A stretch of 64,000 bases of DNA from Escherichia coli (GTDB lineage: Bacteria > Pseudomonadota > Gammaproteobacteria > Enterobacterales > Enterobacteriaceae). Numbering within the stretch: position 1 is the first letter of the stretch; every line of letters begins with the position of its first letter. The notes beneath the pieces are model-generated. The model had not been told where the DNA came from. It worked only from the letters and a program-made list of their open reading frames with translations, and ran no database searches. The stretch lies in the NCBI RefSeq assembly GCF_036507355.1, contig NZ_AP027877.1; one strand, 5' to 3'. The position numbers and the translations under genes were made by a program. Of the stretch, positions 5,034-7,187 are shown in pieces.

Positions 5034-7187
5034 ATGCTAAGTCCTTTGCTCAAACGCTATACATGGAACAGCGCCTGGCTGTATTACGCGCGTATTTTTA
5101 TTGCGCTTTGTGGAACCACAGCGTTTCCGTGGTGGCTGGGTGATGTAAAACTGACGATTCCGCTGACGCTGGGGATGGTGGCAGCGGCGCTGACCGATCT
5201 CGATGACCGACTGGCGGGACGTTTGCGTAACCTCATCATTACGCTGTTCTGCTTTTTTATCGCCTCGGCCTCAGTAGAATTGCTGTTTCCCTGGCCCTGG
5301 CTATTTGCGATTGGCTTAACGCTCTCTACCAGCGGCTTCATTTTGCTCGGCGGTCTGGGTCAACGCTATGCAACAATTGCCTTCGGTGCATTGCTGATCG
5401 CCATTTACACTATGTTGGGAACATCACTGTATGAGCACTGGTATCAGCAGCCGATGTATCTGCTGGCCGGTGCCGTCTGGTACAACGTCCTGACACTTAT
5501 TGGTCATCTGCTGTTCCCGGTCCGCCCGCTGCAGGACAACCTGGCGCGTTGCTATGAACAACTGGCGCGTTATCTTGAGCTCAAGTCGCGCATGTTTGAT
5601 CCTGATATTGAAGATGAAAGCCAGGCACCGCTGTACGATTTGGCTCTCGCCAACGGTCAGCTGATGGCGACATTGAATCAGACGAAACTCTCGCTGCTGA
5701 CCCGCTTACGTGGCGATCGTGGTCAACGGGGAACGCGTCGCACGCTGCATTATTACTTTGTCGCACAGGATATTCACGAGCGTGCCAGCTCTTCTCATAT
5801 TCAGTATCAAACATTGCGTGAACATTTTCGCCACAGCGACGTGCTGTTCCGTTTTCAGCGGCTGATGTCGATGCAGGGCCAGGCGTGCCAGCAACTGTCA
5901 CGCTGTATTTTGCTGCGTCAGCCTTATCAACATGATCCGCATTTTGAGCGCGCTTTTACGCATATTGATGCTGCCCTGGAGCGGATGCGCGATAACGGCG
6001 CGCCTGCCGATTTACTCAAAACACTGGGATTTTTGCTGAACAATTTACGCGCCATTGATGCCCAACTGGCAACAATTGAATCAGAACAGGCCCAGGCACT
6101 GCCCCATAATAATGACGAAAATGAGCTCGCTGATGACAGCCCGCACGGATTGAGTGATATCTGGCTGCGTCTTAGCCGTCACTTCACGCCGGAATCCGCC
6201 CTCTTCCGTCATGCGGTAAGAATGTCGCTGGTGTTGTGCTTCGGCTACGCCATCATTCAAATAACCGGAATGCATCACGGGTATTGGATCTTGCTGACAA
6301 GTTTGTTTGTCTGCCAGCCAAACTATAACGCCACGCGCCACCGCCTGAAGTTAAGGATTATTGGTACGCTGGTAGGTATCGCCATTGGCATTCCTGTGCT
6401 GTGGTTTGTGCCATCACTGGAAGGGCAGCTGGTGCTGCTGGTTATTACCGGCGTGCTCTTTTTTGCCTTCCGTAACGTGCAATACGCTCATGCAACGATG
6501 TTCATCACACTTTTGGTGCTACTGTGTTTTAACTTACTGGGTGAAGGTTTTGAAGTAGCGTTACCTCGCGTAATCGATACGCTGATTGGTTGTGCCATTG
6601 CGTGGGCGGCAGTGAGCTACATCTGGCCTGACTGGCAGTTTCGCAATCTGCCGCGCATGCTCGAACGCGCCACAGAGGCCAACTGTCGCTATCTCGATGC
6701 CATACTGGAGCAATACCATCAGGGGCGTGATAACCGTCTGGCGTATCGTATTGCCCGCCGCGATGCACACAACCGTGATGCTGAACTGGCGTCGGTGGTA
6801 TCAAATATGTCCAGCGAACCGAACGTTACCCCGCAAATTCGCGAAGCCGCGTTTCGGTTGCTGTGCCTTAACCATACGTTTACCAGCTATATCTCAGCCC
6901 TCGGTGCTCACCGGGAGCAGTTAACTAATCCTGAAATTCTGGCGTTTCTTGATGACGCAGTTTGCTATGTTGATGACGCGTTACATCATCAACCTGCTGA
7001 TGAAGAACGCGTCAATCAGGCATTAGCTGGCCTGAAACAGCGGATGCAGCAACTTGAACCACGGGCAGACAGCAAAGAACCTCTGGTCGTACAACAAGTT
7101 GGGTTATTGATTGCATTACTGCCTGAGATTGGTCGTCTGCAACGCCAGATTACTCAAGTTCCGCAGGAAACTCCTGTTTCGGCGTAA
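5034..7187 (+). CDS. yccS: Inner membrane protein YccS (putative transporter, FUSC-like)
   Basis: 717 aa from ATG 5034 (MLSPLLKRYTWNSAWLYYAR...), multi-pass membrane protein; matches YccS. Confidence 0.9.
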   Translation: MLSPLLKRYTWNSAWLYYARIFIALCGTTAFPWWLGDVKLTIPLTLGMVAAALTDLDDRLAGRLRNLIITLFCFFIASASVELLFPWPWLFAIGLTLSTSGFILLGGLGQRYATIAFGALLIAIYTMLGTSLYEHWYQQPMYLLAGAVWYNVLTLIGHLLFPVRPLQDNLARCYEQLARYLELKSRMFDPDIEDESQAPLYDLALANGQLMATLNQTKLSLLTRLRGDRGQRGTRRTLHYYFVAQDIHERASSSHIQYQTLREHFRHSDVLFRFQRLMSMQGQACQQLSRCILLRQPYQHDPHFERAFTHIDAALERMRDNGAPADLLKTLGFLLNNLRAIDAQLATIESEQAQALPHNNDENELADDSPHGLSDIWLRLSRHFTPESALFRHAVRMSLVLCFGYAIIQITGMHHGYWILLTSLFVCQPNYNATRHRLKLRIIGTLVGIAIGIPVLWFVPSLEGQLVLLVITGVLFFAFRNVQYAHATMFITLLVLLCFNLLGEGFEVALPRVIDTLIGCAIAWAAVSYIWPDWQFRNLPRMLERATEANCRYLDAILEQYHQGRDNRLAYRIARRDAHNRDAELASVVSNMSSEPNVTPQIREAAFRLLCLNHTFTSYISALGAHREQLTNPEILAFLDDAVCYVDDALHHQPADEERVNQALAGLKQRMQQLEPRADSKEPLVVQQVGLLIALLPEIGRLQRQITQVPQETPVSA

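Follow-up and report, generated by a model that had tools for sequence, protein, structure and literature searches.

The junction of yccS and sxy raises the question of whether a tail-to-tail overlap of two coding regions serves the control of a competence regulator or is an ordinary product of genome evolution. In the analyzed window, a stretch of 64,000 nucleotides of Escherichia coli DNA (contig NZ_AP027877.1), the yccS coding region (5025..7187, + strand, 720 aa) and the sxy (tfoX) coding region (7150..7779, - strand, 209 aa) were identified as open reading frames with Pfam and RefSeq support. On opposite strands they share 38 bp (7150..7187). The yccS stop codon is TAA at 7185-7187 of the + strand; that of sxy is likewise TAA and appears as TTA on the + strand at 7150-7152. 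For each gene the shared stretch holds 11 sense codons plus 2 nt of a twelfth and the stop codon, and it encodes the C-terminal tails of YccS (...QVPQETPVSA) and Sxy (...PKQEFPAELE). YccS, encoded by the second gene of the yccF-yccS operon, is a FUSC-like inner-membrane protein (Pfam FUSC-like, FUSC_2 and FUSC), with the final match, FUSC, stopping at residue 685 of 720. Sxy, the co-activator of the CRP-S regulon, carries the domains TfoX_N and TfoX_C, the latter stopping at residue 194 of 209. The initial annotation had described a convergent 38 bp overlap at 7150-7187 formed by the last 12 codons of each gene. The reading frames, the sequence and the RefSeq annotation all bore out the overlap, and the codon count was correct to within one codon.

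An annotation or sequencing artefact, with one of the genes in truth ending further upstream, would dispose of the overlap altogether. No positive evidence was found for it; the tails being unconserved, their function as protein is putative. A stop codon is set by its reading frame, and the YccS and Sxy frames are backed by homology (Pfam, orthologues) to approximately 10-15 residues from their stops. Both frames represent real genes, with Pfam domains in each and orthologues in more than 25 species, in unchanged gene order. As homology supports both frames nearly to their ends, neither stop is an annotation artefact, and the upstream stop that the initial annotation had named as a counter-argument was not found. 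Moreover, the identical 38-bp overlap is annotated by RefSeq/PGAP in a K-12 derivative, in a strain 91.8% identical and in a strain 100% identical to the window; the same geometry was annotated in every E. coli record inspected. Of 5426 complete E. coli genomes, 5425 gave a match to the junction region, and overlaps of other lengths recur in more than 20 further species. The artefact reading is extremely improbable and effectively refuted.

Overlaps of this kind are common. Three of the nine convergent junctions within the window showed overlapping coding regions, namely yccS/sxy with 38 bp as the longest, elyC/ycbJ with 24 bp and ycbX/zapC with 4 bp, while the remaining 6 were separated by gaps of 31-75 nt. 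For the E. coli reference genome 75 convergent overlapping pairs have been counted and ascribed to the movement of stop codons (Huvet and Stumpf, 2014, PMC4161906), and the PairWise Neighbours database paper assigned the same origin to convergent overlaps (PMC2716372). Upon loss of its stop, yccS would reach the next in-frame stop after 22 further codons and sxy after 45. With the next stops at these distances, an overlap of 12 codons lies well within the range of chance extension. The yccS-sxy overlap is real, but it is an ordinary convergent overlap of unrelated genes. Nor is it new, with the overlap already annotated and the overlap of its transcripts already published. By itself it matters little, belonging to a class with dozens of E. 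coli members.

In order to follow the junction through evolution, the locus was gathered from 26 further species or lineages of the Enterobacterales. The order ycbZ-matP-ompA-sulA-sxy/yccS-yccF-helD was constant across the loci, with no sulA or yccF gene called in one of them (L028). With the gene order fixed, the ends of yccS and sxy varied between a gap of 44 nt and an overlap of 47 bp. An overlap of 38 bp was found in E. coli, the cryptic Escherichia lineages and E. fergusonii, one of 41 bp in E. albertii and one of 14 bp in Salmonella. Citrobacter species showed 11, 23, 32 or 47 bp, Intestinirhabdus 35 bp, Enterobacter and Lelliottia 44 bp, and Tatumella and Rosenbergiella 26 bp. Yokenella and the Enterobacteriaceae strain ESL0689 were found to share only 4 bp, the two stops lying in a common TTAA. 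The relative L030 carries a 2-nt gap, and Chimaeribacter (Yersiniaceae) a 44-nt gap with a strong hairpin in the spacer. Overlaps of at least 11 bp were all 2 modulo 3 in length, the phase expected if the stops alone move; both 4-bp cases lie in another phase.

The YccS and Sxy tails, located beyond the last Pfam match of each protein, vary freely in sequence and length between genera. Mean pairwise DNA identity of the overlap was 0.52, compared to 0.72 for the flank coding for YccS only and 0.71 for the flank coding for Sxy only, the lowest value of the whole junction. Selected dual coding or selected pairing would be expected to make these bases more conserved than their surroundings; as they are less conserved, the overlap appears to be tolerated and its extent to drift. 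On this comparative evidence the overlap looks like one that is tolerated because both protein tails are unconstrained, with stop-codon drift determining its extent. The short tails that YccS and Sxy carry past their last conserved element are encoded in opposite directions on approximately 30-45 nt, and stop codons drifting in the course of enterobacterial evolution lengthen, shrink or remove the overlap while the gene order stays. Some selection may nevertheless hold the two ends together, given an overlap of at least 4 bp in all 26 Enterobacteriaceae loci examined.

What the overlap entails for the transcripts follows largely from its geometry. With no spacer between yccS and sxy there is no place for a terminator between them, and full-length mRNAs of both genes must be complementary at their 3' ends. 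A consensus scan for terminators over 6500-8200 found none near the junction, only 2 weak and distant sites versus 1.7 expected by chance, and a permissive Rfam scan of 4000-10000 gave no match at the junction. Geometry and the empty scan thus agree with the initial annotation, which had seen no room for a terminator and had predicted transcripts antisense at their 3' ends; the latter are also present in published RNA-seq (PMC4161252, PMC12288877). Conway et al. (2014, PMC4161252) and ExcludonFinder (2025, PMC12288877) named yccS-sxy as converging or overlapping transcription units, and the pair is among 165 convergent excludons of MG1655 found in at least 50% of 58 transcriptomes (PMC12288877). 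Complementary 3' ends, with a mean overlap of 286 nt, were reported for 276 of 370 E. coli convergent operons (75%), and they arise even where convergent operons have room for a terminator (PMC4161252). With antisense 3' ends at three quarters of the convergent operons, the overlap of the coding regions adds nothing specific. No 3' end of yccFS or sxy was found mapped, the supplements of Adams 2021 and of SMRT-Cappable-seq being without an entry for either. For an element ending the sxy transcript inside yccS, 3' of the sxy stop, neither a conserved structure nor a composition resembling a Rho-utilization (rut) site was found: the 12 yccS windows with the least synonymous variation all lie away from the 3' end of the gene, the - strand shows no C-rich skew there, and the sxy-sense fold of 7020-7220 was no better than that of shuffled sequences (z = -0.09). 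A small inverted repeat within the overlap (CAGGAaacTCCTG, approximately 7165-7177) was considered and dismissed, as it is broken in another Escherichia lineage and absent elsewhere.

The initial annotation had further suggested that the overlap contributes to the post-transcriptional control of sxy. In its strongest form this would make the overlap a selected regulatory device, a convergent excludon in which yccFS transcription running into sxy helps to keep the competence regulator off, either by collision of polymerases or by RNase III cleavage of the RNA duplex. The pair is indeed on the published excludon list (PMC12288877), no terminator separates the two genes, and the overlap of at least 4 bp was retained in 26 of 26 Enterobacteriaceae loci. 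Additionally, a stem-loop in nascent RNA has been reported to determine where polymerases from convergent genes collide head-on (bioRxiv 10.1101/2022.10.23.513370), and a conserved stem-loop is found nearby at 7209-7234. Finally, no natural condition inducing sxy is known in E. coli (PMC3330819). Against this, the overlapping bases are the fastest evolving part of the junction, and the overlap changes in length between taxa and is missing altogether from two relatives of unchanged gene order. The antisense 3' ends at 75% of convergent operons occur with or without such an overlap. The documented controls of sxy that were found concern the 5' end or the protein. In Haemophilus influenzae a structure of the 5' mRNA limits sxy translation (PMC2248739), and for E. 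coli the title of Jaskolska and Gerdes (2015) refers to CRP-dependent autoregulation and to proteolytic degradation. A literature search found no experiment on an effect of yccFS transcription on sxy. We therefore consider a selected regulatory device unlikely. The suggested contribution to post-transcriptional control is left without support by an overlap that is less conserved than any other part of the junction and varies in length, and by documented controls that act elsewhere. The sequence gave no sign that the overlap was selected in order to lower sxy expression.

Conservation was observed directly beside the overlap. A GC-rich stem-loop, GCTCCTGGCG-GCGTGC-CACCGGGAGC on the + strand (7209..7234; fold and alignment), was found within sxy codons 182-191 (ALPVARRQEL), at a distance of 22 nt downstream of the yccS stop. 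Its stem of 8-10 bp was retained in 21 of 22 sequences, and the 6-nt loop, constant in length, varies freely. Pairwise identity was accordingly 0.93 and 0.89 for the two stem arms and 0.48 for the loop. Predicted stabilities in the yccS (+) sense ranged from -16 to -26 kcal/mol, with about -19.5 kcal/mol in E. coli, and in every taxon possessing the hairpin the yccS stop precedes it by 13-22 nt. A search for inverted repeats over 7050-7350 had reported none. The E. coli stem consists of 5 bp followed by a G.U pair, which leaves no exact 6-nt seed; the search missed the hairpin for this reason, which is a limit of the tool and no counter-evidence.

The synonymous sites of sxy reflect this structure. 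For codons 182-190 the fraction of synonymous differences was 0.27 compared to a gene mean of 0.545 (sd 0.10), which ranks second-lowest of 198 windows, with only the first ten codons of the gene lower. The hairpin codons CTC, CCG and GAG are fixed in sxy; two of them, the non-preferred CTC for Leu (11% usage in the window) and GAG for Glu (32%), were found fixed in 15 of 16 taxa. For comparison, the 12 residues of the hairpin were recoded randomly with local codon usage (3000 trials, nine taxa). Recodings as stable as the real hairpin made up 0-0.5% in each of the nine taxa, which are related, so that these tests are not independent of each other. Yokenella has kept the peptide motif (LPACRRKEL), with five hairpin codons changed together and the hairpin absent; its real sequence was no better than random recodings (0.73) and folds with only about -6 kcal/mol. 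Both the recoding results and the contrast with Yokenella indicate that the structure is no by-product of the Sxy protein sequence. Covariation offered less, as the stem varies little: 95% of the stem cells were paired, and only 2 change on both sides, one in a Lelliottia series from G-C via G.U to A-U and one in the hairpin-less Yokenella. Judged by its codons and its alignment, the hairpin is the only conserved element near the overlap, lies outside the shared bases and is kept by selection on synonymous sites. Its location within sxy, adjoining the overlap, is the modest new point of this analysis.

As to its function, the hairpin resembles the 3' end of an mRNA. It does not qualify as an intrinsic (Rho-independent) terminator, since no U-tract follows the 7209-7234 stem; the bases that come next are GCAGCUUCAUGAAUG on the + strand and CUUGCAGAAUGGG on the - strand. 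Rho-dependent E. coli mRNAs were reported to end just 3' of stable stem-loops devoid of a U-tract, with the rut site directly downstream and the stem-loop shielding the RNA from exonucleases (Dar and Sorek, 2018, PMC6061677). The sequence of the junction shows these traits: a stable stem-loop shortly after the yccS stop and, downstream of it, a C-rich and G-poor stretch. The latter occupies 7250..7450 on the + strand, antisense to sxy, and its GC skew (between -0.29 and -0.385 over windows of 100 nt), a measure of composition alone, marks it as a possible Rho-utilization region. Of 21 sequences, 16 had the more stable hairpin in the + sense. Where residue 189 is Gln (CAG), as in 16 sequences, a central U.G pair of the yccS-sense stem corresponds to a C.A mismatch in the sxy-sense stem. 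In the Escherichia stem one mismatch favours each strand, so that the strand signal of the wobble pairs is a draw there. From these features we infer that the hairpin acts on the yccS-sense strand, and the stem-loop at 7209-7234, within sxy, probably serves as 3'-end structure for the yccFS mRNA. Transcription of yccFS would pass the yccS stop and continue into antisense sxy, Rho would halt it in the C-rich stretch, and exonucleases would then trim the RNA back to the stem-loop. We propose that the loss of the spacer between the genes left this stem-loop embedded in the coding region of the neighbour.

Alternatively, the same hairpin could act on the sxy side, either as a structure in the coding region of the sxy mRNA with a role in translation or decay, or as a palindromic protein-binding site in the DNA. 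The sxy-sense RNA folds as well, with -14 to -26 kcal/mol, and more stably than 98.7-100% of its recodings; the Escherichia stem has a C.A mismatch in the + sense that turns into a G.U pair in the sxy sense, and at the DNA level the two arms are palindromic and always 6 nt apart. On the other side stands the strand bias just described: the central C.A in the sequences with Gln189 breaks the stem in the sxy sense, and the yccS-sense hairpin is the more stable one in most sequences. Furthermore, a site 13-22 nt past the yccS stop, followed by C-rich RNA, suits a 3'-end element, and in Chimaeribacter, which possesses a spacer, a hairpin sits in this spacer. A role on the sxy side consequently appears rather unlikely to us. 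A drifting, ordinary overlap with an embedded 3'-end stem-loop of yccFS is, in our judgement, the best explanation of the whole junction and a likely one; within it, the drift of the stops in unconstrained tails is the established part.

The embedded stem-loop also permits a bolder view. In the group comprising Escherichia, Salmonella, Citrobacter and Enterobacter, the spacer would have been lost, and the yccFS stem-loop would now dictate Sxy codons 182-191. It could there place polymerase collisions or RNA duplexes, with yccFS transcription setting a threshold for sxy. We regard this as very unlikely; if true, the silencing of the competence regulator in E. coli would gain a further level at the 3' end. 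Any effect of yccFS transcription on sxy would also bear on why no natural inducer of the competence genes is known in E. coli. More generally, yccS-sxy shows that overlaps in unconstrained tails come and go under a fixed gene order, and that a regulatory reading is no default for them. It also suggests that after the loss of a spacer the RNA structure of a 3' end can survive within the adjacent gene and restrict synonymous change there. The hairpin deserves attention whenever the C-terminus of sxy is recoded, deleted or tagged, as in the standard sxy deletion or in C-terminal fusions the likely 3' end of yccFS would be lost or changed as well.

Several known systems can be compared with this junction. 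With the bidirectional terminators and programmed collisions described by Wang et al. (bioRxiv 10.1101/2022.10.23.513370) it has in common a convergent pair and one stem-loop near the gene boundary, which can form from either strand. The yccS-sxy stem-loop differs in that it lacks flanking A- and U-tracts and lies inside one of the genes, and collisions are a feature of the systems of Wang et al. With the convergent excludons (PMC4161252, PMC12288877) it shares the overlap of transcripts at their 3' ends. Most of those overlap in untranslated regions, with a mean intergenic distance of 95 nt (PMC12288877), whereas for yccS and sxy the coding regions themselves overlap. The hallmarks of the excludon, mutually exclusive expression and RNase III processing, belong to the concept, and it is its transcript overlap that places yccS-sxy in this class. 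Closer to the proposed role of the hairpin are the 3' ends of Dar and Sorek (PMC6061677), likewise with a stable stem-loop soon after the stop codon, no U-tract and C-rich RNA thereafter. In contrast to those, for which 3' ends and Rho dependence were measured, the likeness of yccFS is known from sequence, and its hairpin is built from Sxy codons, within the convergent coding region. The overlap itself finds its closest counterpart in the convergent overlapping pairs (PMC4161906, PMC2716372). As in these, of which yccS-sxy is one of the 75 counted in E. coli, two unrelated genes on opposite strands have their 3' ends in common, with a short overlap that occupies unconstrained tails and differs among species through shifts of the stop codons. 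In nothing essential does yccS-sxy differ from them.

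A GC-rich stem-loop on the + strand (window 7209-7234) was found within codons 182-191 of sxy, where it is conserved and synonymous variation is suppressed. When the sxy residues at the hairpin were randomly recoded with synonymous codons, the native stem-loop proved more stable than at least 99.5% of the recodings in nine taxa, while in Yokenella it was lost wholesale. No U-tract follows the stem-loop; C-rich sequence at 7250-7450 comes next. From its sequence features, we consider the structure a candidate Rho-type 3'-end structure of the yccF-yccS (yccFS) mRNA, located inside sxy. 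The Chimaeribacter locus (L032, about 3628-3671) carries a strong GC-rich hairpin, GGGUAGCCGGC-CGGGU-GCCGGCUACCC, within a 44-nt spacer between sxy and yccS. In Rosenbergiella (L031) the perfect palindrome CTACAGT-TAAT-ACTGTAG lies inside a 26-bp sxy/yccS overlap, with the yccS stop forming the end of its 3' arm.

Two other convergent coding overlaps of the window, ycbX/zapC (22435-22438, 4 bp) and elyC/ycbJ (56111-56134, 24 bp), are both contained in the published ExcludonFinder list of excludons (PMC12288877), and scans detected weak terminator-like hairpins in their flanking coding regions. The annotation of E. coli 100416, a strain identical to the window, lists zapC (22435-22977) as a pseudogene carrying an internal stop and gives elfC (27113-29712), the gene of a fimbrial usher, as frameshifted. 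At the ompA-matP junction (9849-10000), the Rfam search yielded matches to Leu_leader, istR, RsmY and STnc370, all of them well under the gathering scores; these sub-threshold matches cluster on a hairpin that is probably the ompA/matP terminator.

YccS evolved much more slowly than Sxy in every comparison. Identities to the E. coli proteins were 90% for Sxy and 96% for YccS in E. albertii, 72% and 88% in Salmonella, and 69% and 88.5% in a record labelled Escherichia fergusonii (L025, 3001-5755), which makes both proteins of the latter as distant from E. coli as their Salmonella counterparts. Judged from these sequences, a divergent or exchanged allele, or a mislabelled assembly, is suggested for this record. 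A further Sxy sequence came from a 276-bp contig (L023) with a coverage of roughly 1x in an assembly of Alkalicoccobacillus porphyridii. The encoded fragment matches residues 76-167 of the E. coli protein with 99% identity, and the contig is almost certainly an E. coli contamination of this Bacillales assembly.

Across sxy, the minimum of synonymous variation was located at the 5' end (0.253 for codons 2-10 versus a gene mean of 0.545). This low-variation segment (codons 1-11, window 7750-7779) may reflect a constraint from mRNA structure or translation initiation, comparable to the known 5' stem of Haemophilus influenzae sxy.
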